The position numbers and the translations under genes are program-made. A DNA stretch of 15,112 nucleotides from positions 1-15,112 of IMG/VR virus record IMGVR_UViG_648276650_000001; one strand, given 5' to 3'. The stretch is from a virus. Lineage: Duplodnaviria; Heunggongvirae; Uroviricota; Caudoviricetes. Positions 1 through 15,112 of the stretch are shown here, in pieces. The notes under the pieces are model-generated. The model had not been told where the DNA came from. It saw only the letters and a program-made list of their open reading frames with translations, and did no database searches. Within the stretch, counting starts at the first letter, position 1, and every line of letters starts with the position of its first letter.

Positions 1-342
1 GACGAAGTAATTTTCAGGGAATATTTCTATGATACACCACCAGAAGGAAAATACAGATGTGTCGGAGAGGATGGGCTGCCTGCGTGGGCAGATATTCCTC
101 CACCCACGCATGAAGAACTTATTGAAATTACAGAATCAGAAAGACAGCTACTAATTAACCAGGCCAACGAATACATGAACAGTAAGCAATGGCCCGGTAA
201 AGCCGCTATTGGTCGTCTGAAAGATGATGAACTGGCGCAATATAATTTGTGGCTGGATTATCTGGACGCACTGGAACTGGTTGATACCTCCAGTGCTCCA
301 GATATTGAATGGCCTACGCCTCCGGCAGTTCAGGCCAGATGA
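1..342 (+). CDS. tfa: Tail fibre assembly protein, C-terminal part only (5' end lies outside the window); convergent with the minus-strand tfa
   Basis: Frame 1 of the plus strand is open from base 1 to TGA at 340-342 and translates to ...GRLKDDELAQYNLWLDYLDALELVDTSSAPDIEWPTPPAVQAR*. The C-terminal motif (TSxAPDIEWP) is the conserved Tfa end as I recall it from lambda Tfa. Absent from the ORF track because no long Met-initiated stretch falls inside the window. Confidence 0.7.
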   Translation, partial: DEVIFREYFYDTPPEGKYRCVGEDGLPAWADIPPPTHEELIEITESERQLLINQANEYMNSKQWPGKAAIGRLKDDELAQYNLWLDYLDALELVDTSSAPDIEWPTPPAVQAR

Positions 343-919
343 CATCCGGCGCGGTGCTGGTATCTGTTGCCGTCACCGCGTCAATGTAATCCAGCACGGC
401 GTTAAGTCGGGTTGTTTCTGCCTGCGTCAACTTCCGTCCGGCCTGTAATTTCAGCTGAATCAGACTAATGGAAACCATTGCTGCATCAATCAGTGACTGG
501 CGCTGTGCTTCTGCCGCTTTTACTGCGGCACCATATTGTGCCTCAGTATCTGTCACCCATTTCTCACCATCCCATTTATCGTATGGCGTTAACGGAGCGA
601 TAGTGCTCGTATTTTCAGGGTAATCTCCTGGCGCGGTGATTTCTTTTGGTTCTCCAGTTTCGGTGCTATAAACAATTTCACCGCGATGGTCTGGCACATA
701 TTTCCACGAGTTCAAATCCGTTGAGCGGCATATTGCATAACCAGCTTTAGATGCACCTGGTGCATCTAAACAAGAACATGCCGGGATACCGACACCGACA
801 GCAAGATATTCTGTTGATGTTGAAATATATTCCTGCGTCTCACCATCATAATTATAAACGGTAACATTCCCCGCCTTTGTAGCAATAAGCTCACTATTTA
901 ATACAGCTTTATTCATCAT
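314..919 (-). CDS. tfa: Tail fibre assembly protein (Tfa-like chaperone)
   Basis: 201-aa ORF. The C-terminal half (DHRGEIVYSTETGEP...YDKWDGEKWVTDTEAQ...DTSTAPDVIWPELPEA) resembles lambda Tfa as I recall it. The start overlaps the stop of the upstream tail-fibre gene in an ATGA arrangement. Confidence 0.85.
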   Translation of the reverse strand: MMNKAVLNSELIATKAGNVTVYNYDGETQEYISTSTEYLAVGVGIPACSCLDAPGASKAGYAICRSTDLNSWKYVPDHRGEIVYSTETGEPKEITAPGDYPENTSTIAPLTPYDKWDGEKWVTDTEAQYGAAVKAAEAQRQSLIDAAMVSISLIQLKLQAGRKLTQAETTRLNAVLDYIDAVTATDTSTAPDVIWPELPEA

Positions 920-1887
920 GCAGCCCTCACAATATAATTAAAAGCGATGTTACGTGGACGATTTTCATTTGCTGTTGGAACGACATTTGCTGCAGAAAAA
1001 TAAACATCTTGTCTGATACGTCTGTCTGTTGCGTAAGTCATAGGTACGTTAATGTTATTTCTAGTAGTTTCTTCCCCATAAAAGGCCCCAGCCACACCAC
1101 TAACATCGATAATTGCATTAATCTCACTGTTAACACGCTGCTGACCGAATGAACCAGTGATGTTTCGAATGGCATCTCCCTGTGACGAAAGCAAGCTACG
1201 GTTAGTATCAATTCCTCTTCCATCATCCCAGCCACGAATGAACTCACCACGTAAATCAGGCAATTTTTTTGTCGGGTAAGCCTTTGCCAGTTCCGGGTAT
1301 TCTTCAGCAGAAAAAACCGCACCGTTGCATTTCAGCCAGCCTGTTGGCGGAGTGGCGGAAGGCCACGGAACAGGGACACCAACAGGTAATGCAGAGCCTT
1401 CTCCCAAACCAAGGTTTGTGCTAGCGTCTGCGGCATTCGTTGCGCCGGTACCACCTTGATTAACCGGCAAAGCTCCGTTGCTCCCCTTCTGCAGTAATTT
1501 CCCAAGAGCCGGGATTGATAAACTGGTGCCATTGATCGTAACGGTAATGTTCTGGTTGGCTGAGGTTGTGGCGAACGTCTCCCACGCACCAATATTCTCG
1601 TCATACTCCTTGATAAGCTGCGACATGGCCTGCGCCAGCCCATCAACCGAGATATTGTCTGATACCAGAATGCCGTACTTCTGGCCGCTCAGCGCCGGTG
1701 ATGCAGCAGGCGTTACCGTCATTGACGTGGCGCTATTCACGGATGAAATCTGGAACAGTTGCACCGGGTTAGACATCACGATAATTGTCTGGCCAGCGCG
1801 AACCTGGCTGGCCGGTGCAGTCCAGTTTGTACCGGAGCCGGTTGCGGTATTTCCGTTAATAGAGATAGTTCCGGTGCTATAAATCAT
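916..1887 (-). CDS. Tail fibre protein (short, 323 aa) with a C-terminal phage-tail-collar type domain
   Basis: The C-terminal region (PVPWPSATPPTGWLKCNGAVFSAEEYPELAKAYP...LPDLRGEFIRGWDDGRG...NIAFNYIVRAA) resembles the conserved C-termini of E. coli prophage side tail fibre proteins (StfR-type ...NIAFNYIVRLA) as I recall them. It has its own AGGAG Shine-Dalgarno 5 nt upstream of the ATG at 1887. Confidence 0.85.
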   Translation of the reverse strand: MIYSTGTISINGNTATGSGTNWTAPASQVRAGQTIIVMSNPVQLFQISSVNSATSMTVTPAASPALSGQKYGILVSDNISVDGLAQAMSQLIKEYDENIGAWETFATTSANQNITVTINGTSLSIPALGKLLQKGSNGALPVNQGGTGATNAADASTNLGLGEGSALPVGVPVPWPSATPPTGWLKCNGAVFSAEEYPELAKAYPTKKLPDLRGEFIRGWDDGRGIDTNRSLLSSQGDAIRNITGSFGQQRVNSEINAIIDVSGVAGAFYGEETTRNNINVPMTYATDRRIRQDVYFSAANVVPTANENRPRNIAFNYIVRAA

Positions 1888-2392
1888 AACAACTCCTAAA
1901 TTTAGACAACATGAAGCCCGGAGAGGTATATAACCCTCACCAGAAATAATTTCTGAATTGGTTTTTAATACATGTTGGGCAACGCCAGTGTTGGCATAGC
2001 TATAGTTGTATCAAATGCCATTGACCACCAACCCAAATAATAATTGCCGACTACTTTATTCCTTTCCGCTATGACATTCCCACCTGTCATTACAATTCCT
2101 TTATACCTAATATTTCCGTAACCACCAACGTGTCGACAGTTAGCCCCGGTATAAACAATCTGGCAAAATTTATCACCAATATTCAGGTTCGCATTGGTGA
2201 TATTTATTGTCCCATCAAAAATGAATGGCTTCGTGCAAGTAAGAACACGTTTGCGTTGACGATTGGTTTATTCAATCCATCAACTAGAATACCTTGTAAA
2301 AGAATTGCCATAATATTTCTCACTTTATTTAACTTACTCAGCATAACAAGTATATTGAAATTCAACCATGTCAACAACACAAAGGAGTCCCA
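1888..2392. promoter_or_regulatory. AT-rich non-coding region between the divergent tail-fibre gene (-) and lipoprotein gene (+); presumed to hold divergent promoters
   Basis: About 500 bp with no convincing ORF and clearly more AT-rich than the flanking coding sequence. Exact -35/-10 hexamers could not be assigned with confidence. Confidence 0.4.
2171..2202. repeat. Perfect 10-bp inverted repeat with a 12-bp spacer (TATCACCAAT-n12-ATTGGTGATA); candidate protein-binding site
   Basis: Read directly: tatcaccaat (2171-2180) and attggtgata (2193-2202) are exact reverse complements. Confidence 0.5.
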
Positions 2393-2626
2393 ATGAAACT
2401 CGCTCTAATTATGCTGCCATTATGTCTGTCCCTCACTGCATGTGGTAATGGTTTAAATACCGGTAAACCAAATTCCGGTGTCATTCCAAAACCTTTGGAT
2501 CGCGATGGTAACGGTTCTTTAATTTATGATACCGAAAAGCTTCCAATGACTGGGCAATGGTGCCATGAAATTGATCACGAATACAGACGAATTGGTTCAC
2601 CTTCAAACTGTGTGATTGATTATTGA
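2393..2626 (+). CDS. Small lipoprotein (77-aa precursor); candidate Cor/Llp-like superinfection-exclusion moron
   Basis: AAAGGAG Shine-Dalgarno 7-8 nt upstream of the ATG. N-terminus MKLALIMLPLCLSLTAC has a hydrophobic core and an LTAC lipobox, with Gly at +2. Two further Cys in the mature part. AT-rich relative to the tail genes. Followed by a strong hairpin with a T-tract. Confidence 0.75.
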   Translation: MKLALIMLPLCLSLTACGNGLNTGKPNSGVIPKPLDRDGNGSLIYDTEKLPMTGQWCHEIDHEYRRIGSPSNCVIDY

Positions 2627-2662
2627 TAATTAACCCCTCAAACGAGGGGTTAATTATTTATT
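2627..2662 (+). terminator. Intrinsic terminator for the lipoprotein gene, formed by a 13-bp perfect palindrome and shared with the 3' end of J
   Basis: taattaacccctc (2627-2639), loop aaac, gaggggttaatta (2644-2656), then tttatt. The T-tract is good on the plus strand only; on the minus strand the hairpin is followed by TCAATAATC. Confidence 0.7.
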
Positions 2663-5600
2663 ACGACCAACTGCCAGTTCCGCGAGTCATTAATATTACA
2701 GACGGGCGCAAGTAGCTATTATAGACGTTCGTATACGCCTCCTTAACGCTTATTGTTACGCTCGACGCTGTCTTTCCTTTCACTGCTAACGGTATGGTTA
2801 CATCCATGTCGGGACCATTAGCAGCTCGCTCAATGCTCCTTGTAATTGAGGTCCCCCCTATGTTAGCAGTCACAGTTATACGACTTGCCTGATTTGATGT
2901 ATATGCGGTTAAACTATAACTTAATAGCAACACAAAGTCTTTAGATAATGTTGAACCAGATGAGTCTTTGAAAGTTTTTGTCCAGGTTCTTGAACTTGTA
3001 GTTTCTGTGTTTGGTATTGCGGACTCAGCAATGACACACATATTCGCAACATCACCGATAAAACTTTGCGCTTCTACAGTTCCTTTGAACTTACCGCTTG
3101 TTGCTTGTATCTCACCAGTAAAGCTACCGCCACTAGCATATACCACACCTCTGACAGTTACGTTATTGAATTCAGCATCCCCGGCTTTATCAAGCTTCCA
3201 GCCAGCAGAACCAGCAACATAATTGTTCGACTGGATATAGTTGCCGATTTTGGCGTTCTCAATGGTGCCGTCCTGGATGAAGCTGGCCCGGATGAATGTC
3301 TGCCCGTTCTGGATCACGAACGGCAAAGCCACGCTATTTCCGGCCGCCGTGGTGACGGCGAAGCGATCAGCCAGGAAGATAACCTGCGACTGCATGCCGG
3401 ATGGCGTATTCTCCACGCCGATCCCCATCCCTGCGGCGTAATACTGCCCGTTGCTGGAGACACCAACCTTGATGTTGTACATCGCGCTGAGTTCGCCATT
3501 AACGTTGGCTATAGCCTGAGCGTTAGTGGTGATGGCGGAGGTATGCCCGTTCACGGTCGCCGTGATGCCGTTTATCTGCGTGGCGGTGGCCTGCTGATAG
3601 TCGGAGAGCGTCTGATTCAGGCTGTTGATGGATGCCTTGTTGCCGTTGACGTCCGTCTGCAGGCTCAGCAATGAACGTGCTGTGGCTTCCTTCTCACTGA
3701 CGATCACCTCGTCGAGACGGTCCAGCTGAGCGCTGTTACCGGCGACCGTTGCGGATAGCCTTTTGCGTGTGGCGACCTGCGCCAGCCCGTTCTGGATAAT
3801 GGCAATGGCTGAGTTCTTGACCCCGCCCGTCATGCCATCCATAGACACACTGATGCTGTCGATTCGCTGGCCCAGCGCGGTATCAGCCGTCGCAACGGTC
3901 TGCTCAAGCTGACTGAGTGAAGACGAAACATTCCCGACCGTGCTGGAAAGCTCATTAACGCTGGTCTGAACCTTCCCGACGTCCTGGGCATTTTTGGCGA
4001 TGTCCTTCGCCTGCTGCTCCAGTTCGTCGTTGGCCTGTTTGATATCGTTAGCCATGTCAGCAATTTTTTCATTGCTGTCCACCGCGTTCTCGATCAGGTC
4101 CTTGAACGTATCGGAGCCTTTCATGTCCTCCAGGATCACATCTGTGATGTCGGAAACATCGATGCTGGCCTGTCCTCGCACCCATTCTGTGTACCCTGAT
4201 TCGTTGCCGCTGCGGTCCACCAGCTGAGCGCGGTACCAGAAAATCTGCCCAGCATTGAGGCCCATCTGCTGATATTTGCGCTGCGGATAAGGCACATCGG
4301 CCAGCAGCATCGCATCGTCCTCGGTTCCGGTCAGGCTGTACTGAATTTCCGTCTTCAGCGTGTCGTCGGTATTCGCCGGGAATCCCCAGTTCAGCTCGAT
4401 GCCGAAATCCACATTTTCAGAAGCGATGAAGCCAACCGGCTTAGGTGGATTGCCCACTTTACCCGTCAGCGTTTTCTCTTCTGAATAGCCCCATCCGGAT
4501 GAAATTTCTGCGGCATTGATTGCGCGCACCCGCACCAGGTAGCGCCCGGCATAAATCCCCGGGACGTCGAATGACGTGGTGGAGGTGCGCGGCACGTTAA
4601 CCCAGTTCCCGTCGTTGCGGCGCCATTGCGCTTCATAGGCGATAGCGTTCTGCGCCTGGTCCCAGCTCACGCGCATCGTTTCGACGCTGATATTTTGCTG
4701 CACCACGGAAAACGAGCTGATCACGATGTTCGCAGGCGGCGACTGGTTACCAGGCGGGATCACGCTCACCGGCCGCTGGTCAATAATGGCTCCGGTATCG
4801 ATTCGGGCATATTTATCCGGATCGTGCCATGCACCGGTAATGGTGAAAGTGCCATCATCGTTATCAGTGACGCTCACAACACGGTACTGCTGTGCGTACA
4901 GTTCGTTTGACTCAACCACCCAGACAGCTTCGGCCTGCGGCGTCTCACTGTATGCGGTGGTGACTGTGACCGATTCCCCGTTAACCGCCTGAATTGTCCT
5001 GCTCTGTGACGCTCCGGAGGGAAGGTTGAGGATAAGGCGATCACCTGCTGCCGCATCAGCTACACGGTCAAGTTTGATAACGCGACCATTAACGGCGCTG
5101 ATGCGTCCGCCCATAACCTTTCCGGAAAGCAGCTCGTCTGCCACAGCGATGATATAGCCAGGCTGCGGTATGTTTCCGTCCAGCCCGACATCGAACGAAA
5201 CAACGCGATCCTTGTTGTTGGTGAGAATACCCCAGCGCCCCTTTCGGTTCGCTTCTGACTGTCTGGTACAACCAATGGCTGTCATTTCGAGCTGATTTGT
5301 GCCAAAGCGAGCAACGAGATCCTGCTCAAATACAGGCTCCATCGCATCCGCGTAGGCATTACCCGGATCGGACCAGGAAACCAGTGCTGTGGTATAGCGG
5401 GTTTTCGTGGTGCTGCCCGAATAGGTAAAGCGCCCATTAACCACGTTTGCACGCGTGTAGCTGTAATCCACATCGCGGGGCATATCCGCCAGCGCAACGA
5501 TTTGATCGCCACCCCAGTACGTCATGCCCCGGAATATCGCCGCAAAATCACGTAACACGGTATAGGCATCATTCCTCTCCTGCACATACACGTTGCAGGT

Positions 5601-6605
5601 ATAGCGAGGCTCAGTGCCGCTACCGCCTTTACCATCAGGAACCGGCTGATCGCAATATTGCGCGACCTGGTAAAGCGTCCATTTATCAATATTGGTCGCC
5701 GTCAGGCGATTGCCCAGCCCAAAGCGGTCGCTCACCACCAGATCGTAAAAAATCCAGGCCGGATTATCCGTCCACGCCCACTTAAACACCCCCGTCCATG
5801 TGCCGCTATAGGTGCGGGTCTCCGGGTCATACGTATCCGGAACGCGGATTACACGGCCTCGCGGTTCGCAGGCTATTTGCGGGATAGAGCCGTTAAACTG
5901 GCTTGAGTCAAATTCGATGTAGAGCAGCGCGGTATTTGGATAACGCAGTTTGGCGTCGATAACCTCTGTGTAGCTCTGCAGCGTCATTGTGTCGCCAATT
6001 TTCGCGCTGTTGGCATCCGCCGTGAGCTTACGCAGGCGCACCGTCCATGTGCTGCCTGCCTGTGGTAAGTCGATGCGATGGCTGCGTTCGTAGCCGGAAG
6101 TTGTCTTGCCGGTTACGCTGGTATTAAGTACCGTCTGCCAGGTACCACCATCAGTCTGCAGATCAATGGCGTAGTTAATTGAATAGCCAACCAGATCGCC
6201 ATCGTTCTCCTGTTTAAAAAGCGATGGCCATTTCAGGCGCAGGCGAACGGCTGACAGCTGCGTGTTGGTAAAGGTGTGTGTCCAGGCGGTGGTGCTTGAA
6301 ACTTCGGTGCCCACGCTGATTTCGTTTTCGGTACCGGGGATGCCCTGAATGTATTTTTGTGCCTGCGTCCCCGGGCGGAATTCCCACGCCACGCCGCTGA
6401 AGTTTTGCGAACCGTCTGCATTCTCCAGTGGTGTGCCGTCGAGATAGATATCTTTCGCCGTCAGTTGCCCGGCAAATTCCCCCTCTCCCAGCGCAACAAG
6501 AATTTTGGCCTTTGCTACGGACTGGAGGTCGTCTGGTTGTTCAGTCGGGGTGCGGGAACTTGAGCTGCCGCCCTTGCGGCCTCTAATCGGAGTAGATGTA
6601 GCCAT
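2661..6605 (-). CDS. J: Tail tip / host specificity protein J (central tail fibre, 1314 aa)
   Basis: Very long ORF immediately after I in lambda gene order. Internal segments (e.g. YPNTALLYIEFDSSQF, TWTGVFKWAWTDNPAWIFYD, CDQPVPDGKGGSGTEPRYTCN, FTITGAWHDPDKYA) resemble lambda gpJ as I recall it. Includes a long Ala/Gln/Ser-rich coiled-coil-like stretch and a distinct C-terminal domain. Confidence 0.95.
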   Translation of the reverse strand: MATSTPIRGRKGGSSSSRTPTEQPDDLQSVAKAKILVALGEGEFAGQLTAKDIYLDGTPLENADGSQNFSGVAWEFRPGTQAQKYIQGIPGTENEISVGTEVSSTTAWTHTFTNTQLSAVRLRLKWPSLFKQENDGDLVGYSINYAIDLQTDGGTWQTVLNTSVTGKTTSGYERSHRIDLPQAGSTWTVRLRKLTADANSAKIGDTMTLQSYTEVIDAKLRYPNTALLYIEFDSSQFNGSIPQIACEPRGRVIRVPDTYDPETRTYSGTWTGVFKWAWTDNPAWIFYDLVVSDRFGLGNRLTATNIDKWTLYQVAQYCDQPVPDGKGGSGTEPRYTCNVYVQERNDAYTVLRDFAAIFRGMTYWGGDQIVALADMPRDVDYSYTRANVVNGRFTYSGSTTKTRYTTALVSWSDPGNAYADAMEPVFEQDLVARFGTNQLEMTAIGCTRQSEANRKGRWGILTNNKDRVVSFDVGLDGNIPQPGYIIAVADELLSGKVMGGRISAVNGRVIKLDRVADAAAGDRLILNLPSGASQSRTIQAVNGESVTVTTAYSETPQAEAVWVVESNELYAQQYRVVSVTDNDDGTFTITGAWHDPDKYARIDTGAIIDQRPVSVIPPGNQSPPANIVISSFSVVQQNISVETMRVSWDQAQNAIAYEAQWRRNDGNWVNVPRTSTTSFDVPGIYAGRYLVRVRAINAAEISSGWGYSEEKTLTGKVGNPPKPVGFIASENVDFGIELNWGFPANTDDTLKTEIQYSLTGTEDDAMLLADVPYPQRKYQQMGLNAGQIFWYRAQLVDRSGNESGYTEWVRGQASIDVSDITDVILEDMKGSDTFKDLIENAVDSNEKIADMANDIKQANDELEQQAKDIAKNAQDVGKVQTSVNELSSTVGNVSSSLSQLEQTVATADTALGQRIDSISVSMDGMTGGVKNSAIAIIQNGLAQVATRKRLSATVAGNSAQLDRLDEVIVSEKEATARSLLSLQTDVNGNKASINSLNQTLSDYQQATATQINGITATVNGHTSAITTNAQAIANVNGELSAMYNIKVGVSSNGQYYAAGMGIGVENTPSGMQSQVIFLADRFAVTTAAGNSVALPFVIQNGQTFIRASFIQDGTIENAKIGNYIQSNNYVAGSAGWKLDKAGDAEFNNVTVRGVVYASGGSFTGEIQATSGKFKGTVEAQSFIGDVANMCVIAESAIPNTETTSSRTWTKTFKDSSGSTLSKDFVLLLSYSLTAYTSNQASRITVTANIGGTSITRSIERAANGPDMDVTIPLAVKGKTASSVTISVKEAYTNVYNSYLRPSVILMTRGTGSWS

Positions 6606-6614
6606 ATTGCGCCC

Positions 6615-6641
6615 ATAAAAAAAGCCACCCTGAGGTGGCTT
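6615..6641 (-). terminator. Intrinsic-terminator-like hairpin between the 88-aa ORF and the J start codon
   Basis: On the minus strand: AAGCCACC, loop TCAG, GGTGGCTT, followed by a T-run of about 7 that includes the stem end. The J ATG lies about 11 nt further downstream. Confidence 0.6.
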
Positions 6642-6659
6642 ATTGCAAGAGAAAATTAA

Positions 6660-6926
6660 TCAGATATTTGTTTCGCTAAATGGGTTTACAAAATCAGCTT
6701 CTGCTTTGAAAAACTGACAATCACTGGACGACGTTACTGATACTGGAATACCGGTATCTTCAACTTCATATAGCTTTGAATATTTATCGGAAACTTTGCC
6801 AGAAAATGTCTCGCGACAAATAACCTCTCCGCCACGGTTTACTATTACTGTCGCATTTCCGCCGATCAGGATTCCGTCATCAACGCGATGCAGGCCTGAA
6901 ATGGTCAATCTTAAGTATTTCTTCAT
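6660..6926 (-). CDS. Hypothetical 88-aa protein inserted between I and J; unknown function
   Basis: ATG overlaps the I stop (ATGA). GGGGA Shine-Dalgarno-like motif about 6 nt upstream. Noticeably more AT-rich than I and J. Lambda has no gene at this position. I recognise no family for the sequence MKKYLRLTISGLHRVDDGILIGGNATVIVNRGGEVICRETFSGKV... Confidence 0.55.
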   Translation of the reverse strand: MKKYLRLTISGLHRVDDGILIGGNATVIVNRGGEVICRETFSGKVSDKYSKLYEVEDTGIPVSVTSSSDCQFFKAEADFVNPFSETNI

Positions 6927-7510
6927 TGTTGATCCCCAACGTAAATCCCGGCTGAAATAATTGCGCCGCCTATGCGTCGGCGACCATAAAGAAGCGGTAC
7001 CGGATAGCCCTGCGCTGCGGTGTTTGTGACTCCGCCGAACGCGTATGAGGCGCGGTTATCTGAGCTCTGTTTGCTGGCCAGCCCTGTAGCCTGGGGGGAT
7101 AACATCTGAACTACACCCCCCAGCGTTATGGACGCACCAGCAGCAAACATCATATTGCTGGCAGCTATACTCAGACCTGGCATCCAGATCGATGCAATCA
7201 CTAATACTGCGCCCAGGATAGTTTGAATCAAACCGGCTTTTTTACTCCCGATGATTACCGGGACAATGCGGATAACATCGCCGGTAACCGGGAAACCGAG
7301 GTCATCCACACCGATGTTTTTTTTACCCTTAAATACGGAGTATGTGATCCCACGGCGCTGGCTGGAAATCATAAACTGCTCAAAGCCCGGAATAGTCTTT
7401 GCGAGCGCCACTCCCGCCTCGCTTACACGGGAAATCAGGCGGTGGTGAATTTTACCGAATGATTTCCCGAGCACGCCGCCAAGCTCAATGCGGGTCATTA
7501 CTTCCTGCAT
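6923..7510 (-). CDS. I: Tail assembly protein I
   Basis: 195 aa, between K and J. Gly/Ala-rich hydrophobic middle and the C-terminal motif (VPLLYGRRRIGG) resemble lambda gpI (LPVLYGEMRVGS) as I recall it. Confidence 0.9.
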   Translation of the reverse strand: MQEVMTRIELGGVLGKSFGKIHHRLISRVSEAGVALAKTIPGFEQFMISSQRRGITYSVFKGKKNIGVDDLGFPVTGDVIRIVPVIIGSKKAGLIQTILGAVLVIASIWMPGLSIAASNMMFAAGASITLGGVVQMLSPQATGLASKQSSDNRASYAFGGVTNTAAQGYPVPLLYGRRRIGGAIISAGIYVGDQQ

Positions 7511-8229
7511 GTTTCACCTGCCATTACATCTTTATAGCGAACGATCTTCATCGTGCGCTCCTGCCAGTATCCGCCATAAGGAACTCGCTGGCTCAGATGC
7601 CCGTAAAGATGGTGCAGCAGCATGTTACCCTCCAGTAAAATCCCGGCATGATTCCACTTATCGGCCTGCACCTGCATGATTACGAGGTCCCCTTCCTGAG
7701 GCGGGCCGTCAAACTCCCTGAATCCGCATTCATACCAGCAATCCTGATAGAAATTGTCCGGGTAGTCGTTTTCCCACCAGGGATAATCCACCCGGTAATC
7801 GTAGAGCTCGATACCGTGGGTCTGCCGGAAATAGCTCATTACCAGACCCCAGCAATCGAAGTGGCCAAGCACAAACGGTCGCTCCAGCAATGGGAGCTCC
7901 CCGCGTGGCTGAATGGTACGTAAATCCCCCTCTGGCCAGCTCACAATATGCCAGGGCAGCAGTGTTGCATCACACTGCGCCTTATCAAGCTCGCTGGCCT
8001 GTGTCGTCGCGTCAGGATGGCTGTGAACAATGGCTACCACCGTCCCCCAGTCTTCTGCCGCTGCGTAATCTTCGGGGGACAGGTGAAAATGTTCAGTCGG
8101 CTCTGCTGCGAGATTACGACAGGGAAAATAGCGCTCAACCCGGCTTTTCTGTGCCACCACGCCGCAGCACTCGCGCGGATATTCCGCTGCAGCGTGTGCC
8201 ATGATGGCATCAATGGTTTTCTGACGCAT
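7498..8229 (-). CDS. K: Tail assembly protein K (MPN/JAB plus NlpC/P60-like domains)
   Basis: N-terminus MRQKTIDAIMAHAAAEYPRECCG resembles lambda gpK (MRQETLNAIRAHAAA). Contains an HSHP JAMM-type motif and a DCWGL Cys motif. Position between L and I. Confidence 0.9.
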   Translation of the reverse strand: MRQKTIDAIMAHAAAEYPRECCGVVAQKSRVERYFPCRNLAAEPTEHFHLSPEDYAAAEDWGTVVAIVHSHPDATTQASELDKAQCDATLLPWHIVSWPEGDLRTIQPRGELPLLERPFVLGHFDCWGLVMSYFRQTHGIELYDYRVDYPWWENDYPDNFYQDCWYECGFREFDGPPQEGDLVIMQVQADKWNHAGILLEGNMLLHHLYGHLSQRVPYGGYWQERTMKIVRYKDVMAGETCRK

Positions 8230-8230
8230 A

Positions 8231-8986
8231 TCAGCTCCTGATAAGAGATGTACCCGGGAAACCGCCGAACGGCAGTTCGTTGCTGTCTCCGTGCCGGAGC
8301 TTGCAGGCCGTCAGCGTGCCGTTGCAGACATCCAGCGAGGGATCGTCAACCGGATTATTGTTTTTGTCGAAATAGCGCGTTCCGGCATAGTCGCAGCCGT
8401 CGCCGGTCCGGTACTTGTTCCGGATGCACCAGCTGCATAACGAATGCAGCTGACGCGTCGGAATCATCTGGCCCTGTAAATCCATCGGACTGGAAAGCGT
8501 AAATTCGACAACTTCATCCGTCTCGGTGCTTCTGGCATCGATATAAAAGACCTTCAGCTTTTCCTGTGACGGGTCTGCAGTGGGATTGCCCTGCGGAAAA
8601 TTTCTGGCGTCCAGATACTGTGCCAGCGTGTCGTGGATACTCACTTTCGCCTGCAGCAGATCGTCATACGCCAGACAGAGCGCTGAGATCGAGCTGTCCA
8701 GGTTCGCCACCCTCAGTTTTGGCTGTGGGCTGGTACCATCCGTGGTCGCTTCAATACCCTCAACCTGACACGGCCAGGCTTTATACTCCTCCCCCTGCCA
8801 CCAGATGGACTTCGCCGGAAGTTTATTCTCGTCGCCGCCTGCGGCTTCAATCTCTTCCGGGGTGTGCGCGATATTGTGTGCGTGGAAGCGGAGCACATCT
8901 GACATACCGAACGCTGTACCATCGACAGAAAAAAGCCGGACTTCATTGCCCGGCTCAAGTTTTTGATAATCAGCATTAAGACTCAT
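8231..8986 (-). CDS. L: Minor tail protein L
   Basis: 251 aa, between M and K. Cys-rich C-terminal region consistent with the Fe-S-binding gpL family. Start overlaps the M stop. Confidence 0.9.
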   Translation of the reverse strand: MSLNADYQKLEPGNEVRLFSVDGTAFGMSDVLRFHAHNIAHTPEEIEAAGGDENKLPAKSIWWQGEEYKAWPCQVEGIEATTDGTSPQPKLRVANLDSSISALCLAYDDLLQAKVSIHDTLAQYLDARNFPQGNPTADPSQEKLKVFYIDARSTETDEVVEFTLSSPMDLQGQMIPTRQLHSLCSWCIRNKYRTGDGCDYAGTRYFDKNNNPVDDPSLDVCNGTLTACKLRHGDSNELPFGGFPGTSLIRS

Positions 8987-9330
8987 GGTGTAAATGCCTG
9001 TTCAAACGTTGCGGTTACGGTTATCACTTTTACGTTTTTAACCACCTTTTTGAGCGTGTCAGCCTCTACACGCCACAGCGCGGTATCGCCGAAAGGCGGA
9101 GTGAAAATAAATGACTTCACTTTATGCCGACGAAGGAAGGCATGGATTTCATTCGCTGTAGTCGGATCTCCTGAAAAGGAATATTCATAGGTGCGAATCT
9201 CATCATTCAGGCCGGAGCCGCTCACCTGTGCGTACCCGTCGCCGAACTGGACTTTCCTGACTATGTCTTTACTTCCCTCGGTGGGCTGGCTGGAAACCTT
9301 AATGCCCCAGGGGAATGTTTCTATCGTCAT
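8983..9330 (-). CDS. M: Minor tail protein M
   Basis: 115 aa, immediately after the tape measure gene in lambda order; size and position match gpM. Confidence 0.85.
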   Translation of the reverse strand: MTIETFPWGIKVSSQPTEGSKDIVRKVQFGDGYAQVSGSGLNDEIRTYEYSFSGDPTTANEIHAFLRRHKVKSFIFTPPFGDTALWRVEADTLKKVVKNVKVITVTATFEQAFTP

Positions 9331-9335
9331 AACTG

Positions 9336-11852
9336 TTACCTGCGATTGGTCGCATTCCAGATAAGCCCACCGGGCTGGATTGCCCTGGCGATACCATCAT
9401 TGACAGATTTGTTAATCACCTGCTGATACGCCTTACCCAGCCTGTCTCCGTCGTTTTGCTGCTGTGCGTTACCGGAAGCATTCTCGACCGTCACCGGGGC
9501 ATACACACTGACACCGAAAGGTGCTGCAGCCGGGCCTGTACCACCGCCCCCGACATACCCTCCCGTTGCATAGCCTTTCATCATCCGGTAAAGATTGCCG
9601 ACGCCGATCCTGCTGGTAGCCTCTTTGGTGAAAACAAACTCACCACGGTGAACGACACCTGCTGGCTCATATTTCCCGCCTGAACCGGTATAACCGCCAC
9701 CTGCAAATCCCAGCGCGGTTGATGCTGAATCCACCAGGCCTACCATCGCCTGTTTCAGCAGGATCTGTGTCAGCATGGAGAGCGTGGAGCGGGTGAAGTC
9801 AGCCCAGTCAGCCTTTCCGCGCGTCAGCATGTCAGCCATATTTTGCCCAATGCCATCAAACGTACTGCTGGCAAACGACTTCATCTGGCCATAAGCATCA
9901 GAAGCAGAATCAACATAATCTGCCCATGCGGATTTGGCTCCGGATTGCCAGTCACCCCGAAGCTTATCCTGCTCGGCGTAATACGCATGCAGCCCCTGCA
10001 GCTCATTCTGATAACCGGCATCGTTTTCGGAACCTCCACCATTTTTCCACCCCTGAAGAAGCTGGGCCTCCTCGTTGCGGCGTTGTGCTGCACGACTGCT
10101 CATACCAGCACTTTCCGCCAGGGCTCGGGTTTTCTCGCCGATCTGCGTGACGTATTTTTGGGACGTATCCTGCAGGCGATTAAGCCGCTCCTGCGCCACT
10201 ATCTGATCGCCGAGCTTCGCGTTCAGCTCCGCACGGGAAAGCACCTCGCTTTTACTGGCCAGCAGGGATTTTTCCTCGGCAGAAAGCGTCCGGGTCTTCG
10301 CGGCCTCTTCCAGAACCGTAAAACGGGACTGCTTACGCCACAGCTCCTGACGCTGCTGGCTGATGGTGTCATTTATCCCCTTATGCTCCTGCAGGGTGCG
10401 CAGCTGTGCTTCCAGCTCCATCGTCTGGGCGCTGGCCGCATCGGTTGCACGGGTACCGGCAGGAGTCCTGACTGCAGGTGTTTTCTTCGGCTTTTTAAGG
10501 GTGTCTTCGTACTCTTTTTTCGCGGCAGCCAGGTTGATGTTGTAGTCAGCCTGGAGGATCCGCCCCTCTTTCAGCGCCTTGTTGAGCTCGCTCTGCCTGG
10601 CCGTGTATTTCTCCAGTGCCGTCTGCGTTTTGGCATAGTTTGCCTGTGCCTGCGCAGCATACTTCTGGCGATCCGATTCCGCAGCCGCTTCGCGCGATGC
10701 ATTCTCTTCGTTCGCCATGGCAATTCCCGCCTGCTGCTGCGCCATATCCAGCGCAAGCCTGGCCGTTTCGCGGTCATTCCAGAATCGGGCGCGAGCCTCA
10801 TCATTGACATATCGGTCACCTTTACGCAGGTTCCAGATTTCATCAGCCTTTTTAAACGCGGCCTGGGCTTTTGCCACCATCTCCTGGGCGGTGTCAGGTC
10901 TGCCAATATCAAGTGCAGCATCCCACATCGACTTGAAGGCACGCTTCAGGGAATCCGCTGAAGACTCAATCGTCCCCATATTGTCGCGGATGGCCTTGGT
11001 CTGATCGTTGAATCCGGCAGTAGCAGCCTGATTAGCCGCCTGCAGTGCGCCAGCCTCATCACCGGCACGCTGCAGCTGTGCCACATGGGCAATCTGTTCG
11101 GCCGTAACGTTGTGGAACTGCTGAGCCATCGCGATCAGGCCTGATGTAGGGTCAGTAGTGAGCTTGCCGTATGCGGCTGCGACTTTTTCCACCGGCACGC
11201 CGGAGGCATCAGTAAATCGCGCCACCGCCTGGCTCATTTCATCAAAGCGCGAACTCGCGCCCACCCCCGCGTTGATAAGCTCGCTCAGGGCTTCGCTGGT
11301 CTGATTGAACGTCAGCCCCGCTGCCTGGCCGTTTCGTGCCAGCGCCAACATACGATCGGCAGTCAATCCGGCCGTGTTCCCCGACAGTACCAGCGTTTTG
11401 TTGAAGTCAGATAGTGTGGATGAGCCCTGGTACCAGGCATAGAACAGCGCACCCGTTGCGGCGGACAGCGCACCGATGCCGACCATCAACGGTGAGATCG
11501 TACCCAGTAAGGCCCTGAATGTTGGTATTATCCCGCCAAAGGAGTCCTTAACCTGACCGCCCTGCTGAAGCAGAATCAGCCATGGGTTCTGCCCGCCCGC
11601 TAGCTGCGTAGCTATATCGGTAAACTGCGCCGGAAGCATACGCATTGCTGCGTTATACTGGCCTATTGAAATACCCGCCTTGCGCGCGGCGTTCTCCTGG
11701 CGGCTAAAGGACTGCTGGATCCGTAGCGCTTCGTCGTTCGCCGCGCTGCCAGTCTGCTTTAATTCTTTTTTGACGTAGTTAAGCTGCTCGTTAAATTTCG
11801 TCGAGTTAACGTCAAGGTTAACGACCAGATCACCCACTGCCGTCTGGGCCAT
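9336..11852 (-). CDS. H: Tail tape measure protein H
   Basis: 838 aa. The N-terminal region (GDLVVNL...KAGISIGQYNAAMRMLPAQFTDIATQLAGGQNPWLILLQQGGQVKDSFGG) closely resembles lambda gpH as I recall it. Long Ala/Gln-rich helical middle and Gly-rich C-terminus. Confidence 0.95.
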   Translation of the reverse strand: MAQTAVGDLVVNLDVNSTKFNEQLNYVKKELKQTGSAANDEALRIQQSFSRQENAARKAGISIGQYNAAMRMLPAQFTDIATQLAGGQNPWLILLQQGGQVKDSFGGIIPTFRALLGTISPLMVGIGALSAATGALFYAWYQGSSTLSDFNKTLVLSGNTAGLTADRMLALARNGQAAGLTFNQTSEALSELINAGVGASSRFDEMSQAVARFTDASGVPVEKVAAAYGKLTTDPTSGLIAMAQQFHNVTAEQIAHVAQLQRAGDEAGALQAANQAATAGFNDQTKAIRDNMGTIESSADSLKRAFKSMWDAALDIGRPDTAQEMVAKAQAAFKKADEIWNLRKGDRYVNDEARARFWNDRETARLALDMAQQQAGIAMANEENASREAAAESDRQKYAAQAQANYAKTQTALEKYTARQSELNKALKEGRILQADYNINLAAAKKEYEDTLKKPKKTPAVRTPAGTRATDAASAQTMELEAQLRTLQEHKGINDTISQQRQELWRKQSRFTVLEEAAKTRTLSAEEKSLLASKSEVLSRAELNAKLGDQIVAQERLNRLQDTSQKYVTQIGEKTRALAESAGMSSRAAQRRNEEAQLLQGWKNGGGSENDAGYQNELQGLHAYYAEQDKLRGDWQSGAKSAWADYVDSASDAYGQMKSFASSTFDGIGQNMADMLTRGKADWADFTRSTLSMLTQILLKQAMVGLVDSASTALGFAGGGYTGSGGKYEPAGVVHRGEFVFTKEATSRIGVGNLYRMMKGYATGGYVGGGGTGPAAAPFGVSVYAPVTVENASGNAQQQNDGDRLGKAYQQVINKSVNDGIARAIQPGGLIWNATNRR

Positions 11853-12581
11853 AGCGCACGCCTCCTGAAATACCTGCAGCCTTCGCCATCAGCGTATCGT
11901 CATCCGGCTCATCAACGTCGATGCTTTCCGATACAGGGGAAAGGATGCTGAAACTGTCCGGTGTTAATTCCGGATCAGCAAAAAACAGGGTTGAGATGGT
12001 GTAGAGCAAACCGGAGAAATGAGCATCCAGCTGCGCATCATGAAAGTAATTGTCCTGGTAGAAGATTTTCCAGTCGCCGTATTCCGTTGAGGACATGCCA
12101 GCAAGCATGGCACGCCAGTCCGGGCGACCGAACTCACGCGCCAGTTTCATGGCAAACTTCAGCTCACTGGCGAGGGCTTTTCCGCAGTAACAGGTTCAGC
12201 GGGTTCATTACGTTCTTCACCGGGCTCAGCCTGGTCATCAGTGACCGGCGCAATCATCCCGGACAGGAGTTTCACCTTATATTCGGCTTCGGCAACAAGT
12301 TCGGTCGGCCATGTCTGCATGACCTCATCCTGAATCTGCTCCACTTCCGCCGCCGCGTTTTCTCCCTGCGATCCTTTAAGCGCGTGGCCATGCCAGAGTG
12401 ACATTGCCACCAGATATGCTCCACTCTTCACGGTAAGGGTAATGGCAGCCTGAAAATCACCAGCTTCAACCGCCTCAAGTTGTTTCAGGTATTCGAGGTA
12501 TTCAATACGCTGCAGCGCCGACAGCTGGAACAATGTGACGCTGCTGCCGTTACTTTCAAGCAGCTCGCTCTTTAGAAACAT
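11830..12581 (-). CDS. T: Tail assembly chaperone G-T, predicted -1 programmed frameshift fusion (T frame continues to the stop at 11832-11830)
   Basis: The T reading frame is -1 relative to G and is open from 12195 to 11830, overlapping the last 12 G codons. The only slippery-looking motif in the overlap is GGAAAAG (minus strand, 12183-12177), one base different from lambda's GGGAAAG. The T end overlaps the H start, as in lambda. Confidence 0.75.
12159..12581 (-). CDS. G: Tail assembly chaperone G
   Basis: 140 aa. MFLKSELLESNGSSVTLFQLSALQRIEYL...AMSLWH...TWPTE...PAEPV...S matches the lambda gpG pattern as I recall it. GGAG Shine-Dalgarno 5 nt upstream. Confidence 0.9.
   Translation of the reverse strand: MFLKSELLESNGSSVTLFQLSALQRIEYLEYLKQLEAVEAGDFQAAITLTVKSGAYLVAMSLWHGHALKGSQGENAAAEVEQIQDEVMQTWPTELVAEAEYKVKLLSGMIAPVTDDQAEPGEERNEPAEPVTAEKPSPVS
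12177..12183 (-). other. Candidate -1 frameshift slippery heptamer G GAA AAG for G-T synthesis
   Basis: Read from the minus strand: zero-frame codons GCG GAA AAG CCC; -1 frame codons TGC GGA AAA GCC. The Lys-tRNA can re-pair AAG to AAA; the P-site re-pairing GAA to GGA is imperfect. Confidence 0.5.
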
Positions 12582-12597
12582 AATTACTCCGGGGGAA

Positions 12598-12613
12598 CGG
12601 GGCTTTCGCCCCG
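12598..12613 (-). other. GC-rich stem-loop (GAAA tetraloop on the mRNA) in the V-G intergenic region, next to the G ribosome-binding site
   Basis: cggggc (12598-12603) and gccccg (12608-12613) pair; on the minus strand CGGGGC-GAAA-GCCCCG. No following U-tract, so it is not a canonical terminator. Confidence 0.45.
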
Positions 12614-12617
12614 GTTA

Positions 12618-13355
12618 TCAGGAAACAGTGACTTTGCAGATCGCCACAAAGTTACCGTCATTGCTCATTACGATGATCTCGACGGTGCCTGCCGCCACGC
12701 CGGTAACAGTCAGGGTATTGCCGCTGACGGTGACCGTTGCTTTTGACGGATCAGAACTGGCTACGCGGAAAGACTTATCTGAAGCACTTGCTGGCAGGAC
12801 AGAAACAACCAGTTGCGTCGTGGCCGCGACAGCCACAGCCGCCGTGGATTTATCCAGGCTGATCCCCGTAACGGCAATCGGCGCGGTACCACTGTCTTCG
12901 GCCAGCGATGGTTTGCCATTGTTGGTGATTTTTGCCGTGCGGGTCATGACCTCTTTAGACGAGATGGTCTTGCCGAGACTGCTCACCCAGCCCTTAAAGA
13001 CATCGACAACACCATTCGGATATTTGATTTTATACCCCTTCACGGTGCCTTCATCGAACCAGTTCACCAGGTCCTGCTGACCGGAATCCTCCGGCATCCA
13101 TGCGAGCGTCAGGTTTGTTTCACCGGCTGATTTCTGCCCCTGCATCGTTGATGTCCAGTCGGCATTCTCATCATCGATGTAGGTGTCATCTTCCGATTCA
13201 GCTGTCAGTTCTCCGGGCTGCAGGTCTTTAATCTTTGCCAGGCGCAGCCAGTCAACGTCTGAAAGCGGATTGGCGTATGGATCACCAGTTCCGGTGTAAA
13301 CCCAGAGGGTGGTACCAGCACCTTTTGTTGGTGCCAGCGGGTTTGGTGTGGCCAT
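12618..13355 (-). CDS. V: Major tail protein V with C-terminal Ig-like (Big_2-type) domain
   Basis: 245 aa (lambda gpV is of similar length). C-terminal region has the Thr/Val/Ser-rich beta-strand pattern typical of bacterial Ig-like domains. Position after U. Confidence 0.9.
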
Positions 13356-13362
13356 AGGGTCC

Positions 13363-13761
13363 TCACATGTCGTAAGTAATGGAATATTTCAGGTCGGCAG
13401 AACTCCACAGCGCCATATCGTCATCGCGCTGGTAGTCATAGCCCTGCTGAACCATTGTGGTGATAAGAGATTCAAGCCCCGGAACCTCTGCGAGAACCGG
13501 ATACACTCTCGTCTCCATCCAGTCATCCAGATCAGAATCAGGTACCTGAGCCTCAAGAAAGACTTCGATATGCAGAATGGCCTGCCAGCTATCGGCGTCC
13601 AGTTCTTCCCCTGTGTATTCCGCATCTGTCAGGTAGACGGCAACAGCGGGAAAATCACCCTCTTCGAGCACTGCAGGTCTGCCGTCAAAATAAATGACAT
13701 CAGTACCAATCGCGCTTTCCAGCGCGTCAATAATCACCTTGCGAATATCGCTGTGTTTCAT
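13363..13761 (-). CDS. U: Tail terminator protein U
   Basis: 132 aa. [45 protein letters not shown]...[24 protein letters not shown] is close to lambda gpU as I recall it. Confidence 0.95.
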
Positions 13762-14312
13762 CGTGTCAGAATTAACCTGAGTTGGTTGGTAAGGGATGCC
13801 CGGAGCTCTTTGGGCATATCTGACTCCATGAGCTTCGGCAGTTCTTCTTTAAATGCCGTAGTTAATGGAGCTGCCAGCGGGATGCTGACCACTTCAATGG
13901 GGTAACGAGGTTTTGAAGTCCGCCTCATGACATGCCAGCGACCATTTTTAAGTTGCTGGATAAAGCCGCCCGGAAAACGAAATGGCCCTATGCGCAGAAC
14001 GCTGTTGGCCCCTTTCTTGTCCCGTTTTCTGCGGGAAAGTCGCACGCTTGCGGTACCGAGTTTAATGGCCGGTAAATTTCCCCGGTTTACCCGGATAAGT
14101 GCACGAGGTCTATTGACCGTCGCACGCTTCACCATGGCGCGTTGCTTTACCAGTTTTCGCGGTACGCGCGTATCTTTTGATACGACTGCCACGCTGCGGC
14201 TGACGGCCCGGTTTGCCACGCGGTTAACGGCCTGCGCCGATGCCCGCGGAACAGCCGTTTTGCTGATGCTGTTAAGGTTTTCTATGGCCTGTTCAAGGCC
14301 TTTTATGGACAT
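13758..14312 (-). CDS. Z: Minor tail protein Z
   Basis: 184 aa basic protein between FII and U; size and position match lambda gpZ. Confidence 0.85.
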   Translation of the reverse strand: MSIKGLEQAIENLNSISKTAVPRASAQAVNRVANRAVSRSVAVVSKDTRVPRKLVKQRAMVKRATVNRPRALIRVNRGNLPAIKLGTASVRLSRRKRDKKGANSVLRIGPFRFPGGFIQQLKNGRWHVMRRTSKPRYPIEVVSIPLAAPLTTAFKEELPKLMESDMPKELRASLTNQLRLILTR

Positions 14313-14321
14313 ATGCGCTCC

Positions 14322-14675
14322 TTAACGGCGACGCGAAGATGCAGGTGGAGAGCCGTTACCCAGACAGATATGACAGGAGCCACAGTCATCCGGACCAATA
14401 CGTTCAACCCAGAATTGCCGACCGTTAATCGTCAGCGTGTCCATACGCTGCAGCTGCCTGACAGTGGCGGTTTCCACAAACAGGGTCGGGCTGGTTCCTT
14501 CAACACGAATCCCGGCACCGGCATATCCGATATTTTCTGGATCATCGAATACACCGACCAGGGTGGCACCTGACAAAGCGCCTGACATCACCTTTGCCTC
14601 TGTGCCCATCACACCACGGATAGCGCTATCAGCTCGCGACATGGCCTCGTCAAAGAGATTATCGAAATCAGCCAT
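14322..14675 (-). CDS. FII: Head-tail joining protein FII
   Basis: 117 aa. MADFDNLFDEAMSRADSAIRG...GVFDDPENIGYAGAGIRVEGTSP...DTLTI...PDDCGSCHI closely resembles lambda gpFII as I recall it. Confidence 0.95.
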   Translation of the reverse strand: MADFDNLFDEAMSRADSAIRGVMGTEAKVMSGALSGATLVGVFDDPENIGYAGAGIRVEGTSPTLFVETATVRQLQRMDTLTINGRQFWVERIGPDDCGSCHICLGNGSPPASSRRR

Positions 14676-14685
14676 GTGGCCCCCT

Positions 14686-15093
14686 TCAGACTTCGAAAGC
14701 CAGCCCCTTTGCGATCAAGTCGTCGGCATCCTGTTCAGATACGCGGATAATCACACCAGGCTCTACGATAGATACCGGCTCGTTACGCGTGGCATGCAGA
14801 GCGTCAATATGCAGGGTGGCCAGCGTTTCTACTGATACCAGGTCACCCGTTGTGGCCGATTCCGTTTTTACTTTTGCCACGTTAGCAACATTGTTGTCGG
14901 TGCTGTCGGTGCTGTCGGAAGCATTCTGCACGCCGTTTTCACCGTCAACTGACCCGGCATTGCCATCCAGTTCCTCTTCAAGCTCAGCAATACGCATCGT
15001 CAGTTCCTGAATGGTGCCGCTGGTACTGACCTCGCGGTTAAGCTGGGTCCCAAGTTCATTCAGGCGGGCGACCAGCTTTTCTTTTTCTGTCAT
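14686..15093 (-). CDS. FI: DNA packaging / head assembly protein FI
   Basis: 135 aa. N-terminus MTEKEKLVARLNELGTQLNREVSTSGTIQELTMRIAELEEEL and C-terminal ...LHIDALHATRNEPVS... resemble lambda gpFI as I recall it. GGAG about 12 nt upstream of the ATG. Confidence 0.9.
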   Translation of the reverse strand: MTEKEKLVARLNELGTQLNREVSTSGTIQELTMRIAELEEELDGNAGSVDGENGVQNASDSTDSTDNNVANVAKVKTESATTGDLVSVETLATLHIDALHATRNEPVSIVEPGVIIRVSEQDADDLIAKGLAFEV

Positions 15094-15112
15094 GGGAAAT
15101 ACTCCAGAAAGG

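Follow-up and report, generated by a model that had tools for sequence, protein, structure and literature searches.

The 15,112-nucleotide stretch of tailed-phage DNA analysed here (IMG/VR record IMGVR_UViG_648276650_000001, positions 1 to 15,112), referred to below as the window, carries a lambda-like tail operon on its minus strand. Between the tail genes I and J of this operon lies an additional small open reading frame (ORF) of 88 amino acids (aa), ORF88, which is the subject of this study. A sequence-only reading of the window had singled out the region from 6606 to 6926 as an AT-rich insertion with the signature of a moron. The features at the locus, in window coordinates, are as follows.

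6660 to 6926, minus strand: ORF88 coding sequence, TGA stop included; 88 aa, 9.7 kDa, pI 5.3.
6923 to 6926, minus strand: ATGA overlap of the I stop (6925-6923) and the ORF88 ATG (6926-6924).
6933 to 6937, minus strand: GGGGA ribosome-binding motif, 6 nt 5' of the ORF88 ATG and within the end of gene I.
6923 to 7510, minus strand: gene I homologue, 195 aa, complete; the upstream partner of ORF88.
2661 to 6605, minus strand: gene J, encoding the central tail fibre, 1314 aa, ATG at 6605; the downstream neighbour of ORF88.
11852 to 9336, minus strand: tape measure gene H, followed by M, L, K, I, ORF88 and J.
8229 to 7498, minus strand: gene K of the tail operon.

The presence of an extra gene between I and J was confirmed, since this minus-strand ORF is missing from lambda, N15 and mEp237; the region 6606-6926 consists of ORF88 and the 54-nt spacer preceding J. 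The ORF88 protein starts with MKKYLRLTISGLHRVDDG and ends with DFVNPFSETNI. The I homologue is complete, as had been proposed: its 195 aa compare to 192 in the N15 protein and 196 in that of mEp237, and it has the same C-terminus as both, and its product matches Pfam Lambda_tail_I weakly, under the curated cut-off. The overlap of the ORF88 start with the I stop and the gene's own GGGGA motif were both seen as described, and the ATGA arrangement suggests that translation of ORF88 may be coupled to that of I. The AT-richness was likewise borne out. ORF88 has a GC content of 40.4% and a GC content at third codon positions (GC3) of 34.8%, compared to 49-57% GC and 51-64% GC3 for twelve neighbouring tail genes, and the ORF88 homologues in three other I-J contexts have 39-42% GC. 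The N-terminus is not hydrophobic, with a maximum Kyte-Doolittle mean over 15 residues of 1.29. In agreement with the sequence-only reading, no signal peptide was seen in ORF88, nor any lipobox or membrane helix, on hydropathy and sequence inspection with no dedicated predictor.

To place the window, its DNA was compared with known genomes. Positions 6400-7200 are 97% identical to phage HK225, whose gp20 is 99% identical to ORF88 and is annotated as 'hypothetical protein'; ORF88 itself is already in RefSeq as a hypothetical protein (WP_001324901.1). A 100% identical copy of the ORF88 DNA was found in one of 5,426 complete E. coli genomes, that of strain MS 115-1, and in no other, and the window most likely comes from the MS 115-1 prophage. 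Searches of 5.8 billion clustered proteins returned 32 clusters with 74-99% identity to ORF88, nearly all of 88 aa, from Enterobacter, Leclercia, Citrobacter and E. coli. The ratio of non-synonymous to synonymous substitutions (dN/dS) was 0.06-0.15 for all pairs, with dS reaching saturation in some; by this measure ORF88 is shown to be under purifying selection. An AlphaFold2 model folded as an 8-stranded β-sandwich, with a mean predicted local distance difference test score (pLDDT) of 87.9 and a predicted template modelling score (pTM) of 0.75, and low confidence was confined to the last four residues, within the conserved tail DFVNPFSETNI. Given the low dN/dS, the 32 clusters of nearly uniform length and the confident model, ORF88 is a real gene and no chance open frame.

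The I-J junction varies among related phages. ORF88 is present in the window, in HK225 and in SaltyDalty, and is absent from the junction in N15 and mEp237, whose flanking sequences are 85-95% identical. A five-way alignment revealed a clean indel of ~275 bp that runs from the I stop to a common hairpin, after which the J start region follows. The window gpI shares 84% identity with its counterparts in N15 and mEp237, two phages without the ORF, and is nearly identical to them over the C-terminal 60 residues; residues 1-700 of J are 94-95% identical between the window and the same two phages. Since I and J are near-identical where ORF88 is missing, a tail tip can be built with or without it, and the comparison shows ORF88 to be, as judged from gene content, dispensable for the N15/HK225-type tail tip. 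The contexts examined at the I-J junction were those of the window, HK225, SaltyDalty, three Citrobacter loci, three Enterobacter-type loci and one relative at 56% identity. All eight contexts examined, including the one with no more than 56% protein identity, retained the position between I and J and the overlap with the I stop; the overlap reads TAATG in locus L023 and ATGA in the others. The subfamily was found alongside J proteins of five different lengths. ORF88 is an accessory gene, probably of horizontal origin, within the tail-tip part of the N15/HK225-type late operon.

Several observations were made on the surrounding genes. SaltyDalty (locus L020, PP925825, 30285-36900) has the tape measure gene followed directly by an 89-aa C-terminal fragment of I, ORF88 and J; it is deposited as a 'complete genome' and there is no M, L or K anywhere in the record, so that it is either a deletion derivative or carries an assembly fault. 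Other small genes are inserted between K and I elsewhere, namely one for a YecR-family protein in Citrobacter (L008, 5031-5357) and a 111-aa ORF in a gut metagenome prophage (L015, 10994-11329). As these small inserts differ among relatives, accessory genes appear to insert recurrently in the K-I-J stretch. The last ~114 codons of J (window 2661-3000, minus strand) have 42% GC, compared to 53-58% in the remainder of the gene, and J ranges from 1059 to 1320 aa among close relatives; both fit an exchange of the receptor-binding end.

The sequence-only reading had combined the foreign composition of ORF88 with a downstream terminator into the signature of a moron, that is, an independently transcribed lysogenic-conversion gene that would give the host an exclusion, defence or fitness benefit. 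A hairpin is indeed found downstream of ORF88, directly before J:

6615 to 6641, minus strand (stem-loop 6641-6622): hairpin AAGCCACC-TCAG-GGTGGCTT followed by a T-run, directly upstream of the J start.

The hairpin GCCACC-TCAG-GGTGGC with its T-run is common to all five aligned sequences. It follows ORF88 in the I-J subfamily contexts examined, and is annotated as a terminator after gp20 in HK225. N15 and mEp237 have the identical hairpin straight after I, without ORF88, and the N15 annotation also calls it a terminator; in the N15-type locus L004 the hairpin upstream of J lies at 2001-2024. Locus L023 (~5280-5310) has the stem CCGCC-TACG-GGCGG, in which the structure is retained through compensatory changes. 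The stability of the window hairpin is unremarkable relative to shuffled sequences (z = -1.2), and the case for it rests on conservation and compensatory change rather than on energy. Because N15 and mEp237 have it without ORF88 and L023 keeps its structure, the hairpin is, on this comparison, an ancestral element of the I-J junction that lies outside the ORF88 insert. A terminator as part of the insert is therefore not supported: the hairpin and T-run are present but older than the insert. As a terminator-shaped element that is strictly kept in an antiterminated late operon, the hairpin may have a role of its own, and it may block stray transcription into J or stabilise the transcript. Rfam revealed no known RNA family anywhere in the window.

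A promoter of its own, expected of a moron, was not found either. Consensus scanning, by which weak or atypical promoters could be missed, gave no sigma-70-like promoter site on either strand between 5500 and 8500, where shuffled sequences gave a mean of 2.5. Since no promoter-like site was found and the start of ORF88 overlaps the I stop, the gene appears to be arranged for production along with the late tail genes. The morons HK97 gp15, lom and cor of lambdoid tail operons are transcribed from promoters of their own, and their products are membrane or exported proteins active in the lysogen. ORF88 resembles them in being an extra gene of atypical composition between conserved tail genes that is absent from close relatives, and differs from them in being soluble, in overlapping I and in having no promoter-like site. 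Lacking both a signal peptide and a membrane segment, it cannot work at the envelope in the manner of Cor, Lom and HK97 gp15. Of the moron signature, the foreign composition and the patchy presence stood, and the promoter and the insert-specific terminator did not. The atypical composition, the close relatives without the gene, the hairpin with T-run downstream and the fact that tail operons host such genes, one of them in the window itself, would fit a moron. Nevertheless, with an overlap of I in every context, no promoter-like site, a hairpin that occurs without ORF88 and no PADLOC match, we consider the moron explanation improbable.

The moron-like gene in the window is a lipoprotein ORF on the plus strand (2393-2626), located immediately past the J stop and reading against the direction of the tail operon. 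It encodes 77 aa (MKLALIMLPLCLSLTAC...), has 40% GC and is preceded by a promoter-like site, TTAACT-16-TATATT, 37 nt upstream (2329-2356). A hairpin, ACCCCTCAAACGAGGGGT (~2640-2660), lies between the convergent stops of J and this ORF. The gene has no Pfam match and is a textbook moron at the place where N15 and phi80 carry cor; a Citrobacter relative (L008, 10726-10980) has a different reverse-strand lipoprotein in a similar place.

Another explanation is that ORF88 is a structural domain of I or J, either split off as a separate gene or added to some gpI molecules by a programmed -1 frameshift. Immunoglobulin-like domains are added by frameshift to other phage structural proteins. The ORF88 frame is open for 44 codons upstream of its own ATG, across the end of I, and the predicted β-sandwich has its best structural matches in parts of gpJ. 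However, N15 and mEp237, both of which lack ORF88, have the -1 frame open to the same extent, and there is no X_XXY_YYZ slippery site in the last 44 codons of I, nor anywhere in I of a Citrobacter relative. Stand-alone relatives begin at the same methionine as ORF88, and a profile-profile comparison revealed no similarity of the ORF88 family to the J of the window. The sequence-only reading had itself allowed that the protein might be a domain normally fused to I or J; no homologue fused to either was found among the 5.8 billion clustered proteins or among 1.84 billion representatives. The only fusions found were to tape-measure-like and gp59-like modules, which are described below. The split-gene and frameshift explanation is thereby largely refuted, and we give it very little credence.

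To determine the family of the protein, ORF88 and its relatives were searched against profile databases. ORF88 matches PHROG 2571, a family of unknown function, with an expectation value (E) of 4.4e-20, its residues 1-88 aligning to profile positions 99-178, and ten of its relatives match the same family (E 1e-12 to 1e-49). A profile search of the 1.84 billion representatives returned distant relatives with 27-38% identity, all of which match phrog_2571. Scans of ORF88 and relatives against Pfam and NCBIfam gave nothing usable, and no PADLOC defence model matched ORF88 or four relatives, even with E values of up to 1 allowed. When the ORF88 family profile was run against PDB sequences, the matches were at chance level only (E above 0.3), and the family hidden Markov model (HMM) revealed no paralogue or fragment among the ORFs of the loci fetched up to that point. 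Two sets of matches were set aside: Pfam Pertussis_S2S3, which matched the ORF88 search set at E 0.13, was judged to be noise, and the large repetitive proteins P0037, P0038, P0041, P0048 and P0049 were read as compositional or repeat matches. The earlier statement that no family was recognised for ORF88 thus holds for Pfam, NCBIfam and PADLOC and fails for PHROG, which the protein matches clearly, and the gene was already annotated as hypothetical. Together, these results show that ORF88 encodes a small soluble β-sandwich protein of PHROG 2571. Since the family has no assigned function, membership alone explains nothing.

The 88-aa subfamily differs from the remainder of PHROG 2571 in two respects. 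It has an extra conserved C-terminal tail, FVNPFSETNI, and it always lies between I and J, whereas the examined members outside the subfamily are found between the lysis genes and the terminase. All six distant members with a readable context were located on the late-gene strand in the variable stretch that runs from the lysis cassette to the small terminase subunit. One distant member, mEp237_060, comes from a phage with nothing inserted at the I-J junction. Members of the family have a consistently lower GC content than their surroundings. In three independent contexts (L006, 4303-4524; L015, 6327-6536; L011, 6275-6493) a distant PHROG 2571 member is followed by a gene for a conserved ~70-aa protein (MFVxxGLKxDxDNxGWVxGWGVVRxAPWHLxGVY...), with no Pfam match where tested. 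This suggests that the two form a two-gene cassette; ORF88 has no such neighbour in the window.

About half of the distant 50%-identity clusters are longer proteins with an extra segment before or after the ORF88-type domain. This segment is a long helix that ends in (Q/R)PGG(L/I)(L/W/Y)..R, and in some proteins it includes a 'VFIKD' hairpin. The segment matches the end of the tape measure protein, which in the window lies outside the insert:

9339 to 9440, minus strand: C-terminus of the tape measure protein, last ~34 residues (LGKAYQQVINKSVNDGIARAIQPGGLIWNATNRR), matching the segment fused to ORF88 relatives.

The window tape measure protein ends in ...INKSVNDGIARAIQPGGLIWNATNRR, a layout that recurs in the lambda gpH segment ...ARDEIQTQMRDGGLFS. 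Six fused segments were combined into an HMM, which was searched against 2,299 ORF fragments from all loci. Beyond the sources of the model, it matched only tape-measure C-termini (E 2e-6 to 5e-4), with the next match at E 3.2. In the reverse search, performed with a model that was slightly contaminated by an unrelated tape-measure end, the segment-bearing proteins were the best matches other than tape measure proteins, were individually weak (E 6e-4 to 0.4) and in two cases matched in two collinear pieces. With tape-measure C-termini, for which the C-terminal fragment of lambda gpH (gpHC) is the known case, the fused module shares the C-terminal helix and the (R/Q)(P/D)GG(L/I) end, and in some modules a 'VHRGEFVF'-like hairpin is shared as well. 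The likeness belongs to the fusion partner and not to ORF88 itself, however; the fused module also lacks the glycine-rich spacer, and its HMM detects N15-type tape-measure ends but not lambda's own. In an AlphaFold2 model of the fusion protein P0040, the same sandwich was joined to one long helix that was not confidently packed on the domain (pTM 0.54). Inside the lambda virion tip, gpH residues 818-849 form a trimer that is bound to gpI residues 134-222 (PMC12617516; PMC11101478).

Two of the fused relatives, P0094 and P0096, are composed of an N-terminus of the gp59/orf66 type, then the ORF88-type domain and then the tape-measure-like tail. The same tail ends the proteins of the N15 gp59 / phi80 orf66 / mEp237_062 family, which are uncharacterised and encoded by the last gene before cos, and the middle part of phi80 orf66 matches the Pfam J domain Phage_Tail_Tip (E 6e-5). 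From these layouts, the ORF88-type domain is therefore seen as an exchangeable middle module of a tail-tip-like scaffold, with P0094 and P0096 being the scaffold with an ORF88-type middle. In mEp237, a gene for an ORF88-type domain lies two genes upstream of the scaffold gene. ORF88 differs from the gp59/orf66 family in having neither its N-terminal domain nor its C-terminal tail, and a profile-profile comparison of the ORF88 family with phi80 orf66 revealed no similarity. Single deletions of phi80 orf62, orf65, orf66 and orf64 were made in the study of the Tai defence, and only that of orf64 was reported to lower the titre (PMC11364771). The novelty here is the link of the ORF88 family with the tape-measure C-terminus and with the gp59/orf66 proteins, the gene itself being already annotated as hypothetical.

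Free-standing proteins with such tails were also noted. Those encoded by phi80 orf66 (L019, 5353-6081) and mEp237_062 (L006, 4685-5152), both just before cos, have a common N-terminal domain and differing middles and end like a tape-measure C-terminus (..PGG[VIT]IW...R). SaltyDalty CDS0020 (L020, 11493-12044), downstream of the lysis genes, has the same tape-measure-like tail. All three look like free-standing mimics of tail-tip parts.

We propose that ORF88 may be a dispensable, late-made binding module that acts at the hub formed by gpI, the end of the tape measure protein and J, and give this reading a probability of roughly 40%. It is put forward because a small copy of the tape-measure C-terminus recurs as a fusion partner in ORF88 relatives, because the matching lambda gpH segment forms a coiled coil that binds gpI, and because ORF88 is coupled to I while the domain of its relatives sits in the gp59/orf66 scaffold. 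As judged from the gene layout, ORF88 would be produced in the lytic cycle alone, with the antiterminated late transcript as its message, and ribosomes that finish gene I would go on to translate it, so that its synthesis would roughly follow that of gpI. The protein would then bind at the hub of the assembling tail tip, where the base of J, the gpI trimer and the tape-measure C-terminus come together. It could be either a passenger of the tip or a cytoplasmic protector of its assembly.

The main rival, which overlaps with the hub-binding reading, is that ORF88 is a late-operon anti-defence protein that shields tail-tip assembly by binding and sequestering an assembly inhibitor, in which case the fused relatives would offer a decoy of the tape-measure end. 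Two such systems are known. The phi80 protein Tai blocks tail assembly, with escape mutations in J, and is neutralised by AtiEcA, the product of orf64 (He et al. 2024, PMC11364771). In the case of JBD26, Tab is directed at the tape-measure C-terminus and is neutralised by anti-Tab (Patel et al. 2024, PMC10884400). The small protein AtiEcA is encoded in a Q-dependent late operon upstream of the packaging genes (PMC11364771), and the hot spot that it occupies is the location of all six distant PHROG 2571 members examined. ORF88 and AtiEcA are both small (63-88 aa), patchily distributed accessory proteins of the Q-dependent late operon of lambdoid phages. Anti-Tab has 83 aa and a one-base overlap with the preceding late gene (PMC10884400), as ORF88 overlaps I; it is embedded in the late operon, where the gene it overlaps is structural, and it is dispensable. 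The patchy distribution and atypical GC content of ORF88, together with its lack of an enzymatic motif or export signal, are consistent with such a role, as is the finding that its domain is fused to or swapped with mimics of both known targets, the tape-measure C-terminus and a J tip segment. The Tai study itself states that other, unrelated counter-defences may exist (PMC11364771).

Against counter-defence stands the lack of any sequence or profile similarity of ORF88 to AtiEcA, TaiEcA, Tab or anti-Tab. ORF88 and AtiEcA gave no BLASTP match and an hhalign probability of 0.1%, and anti-Tab (JBD26 gp30) scored 5 bits against the ORF88 family profile. The gp30 protein looks helical rather than β-rich on sequence inspection only. 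The gene contexts differ as well. AtiEcA sits beside a divergent tai gene and anti-Tab is always paired with an opposite-strand tab, whereas ORF88 has the late-operon place but no adjoining tai homologue, tab partner or other divergent defence gene, the nearest opposite-strand gene being that of the exported lipoprotein beyond J. The MS 115-1 prophage already has a taiEcA-atiEcA pair elsewhere, and HK225 has ORF88 but no TaiEcA, so that ORF88 is not tied to the Tai/Ati system. Weighing these points, we hold an anti-defence role to be rather unlikely. Since ORF88's unrelated family occupies the same niches, it is nevertheless a reasonable place to look for further counter-defences.

The MS 115-1 pair belongs to a phi80-type tail-assembly-inhibition locus between the lysis genes and the terminase (L021, 24445-26173; NZ_CP146665, 1184444-1186172), with taiEcA on the opposite strand (204 aa, 99% identical), atiEcA (100% over 63 aa) and orf66 (98%). 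All three are annotated as hypothetical in RefSeq, and taiEcA and atiEcA lie ~16 kb from ORF88.

More tentatively still, and with considerable doubt, the hub-binding reading of ORF88 can be widened to a class. The ORF88 domain and the gp59/orf66 proteins might represent a class of 'tail-tip mimic' proteins, so far undescribed, that lambdoid phages express late and in which interchangeable β-sandwich or J-like modules would be targeted to the gpI hub by a copy of the tape-measure C-terminus. Such mimics could serve as decoys, drawing off defences directed against J or the tape-measure end. Alternatively, they could be passengers that are loaded into the tip and released into the periplasm with gpI and a tape-measure fragment at infection. 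On this view ORF88 would have lost the targeting tail and would depend on being translated together with gpI.

Few phage machines are as well studied as the lambdoid tail tip, yet the genes of one such tip enclose ORF88, annotated as hypothetical, which also occurs in the cultured phage HK225. The Tai and Tab defences attack exactly J and the tape-measure C-terminus, and phages answer them with small late-operon proteins. Should ORF88 prove to have no phenotype, it would be no more than another hypothetical accessory gene. Were its connection to gpI and the tape-measure end to prove real, an accessory layer on the tail-tip hub would have been identified, and there would be a handle on the unexplained gp59/orf66 genes that adjoin cos in N15 and phi80.
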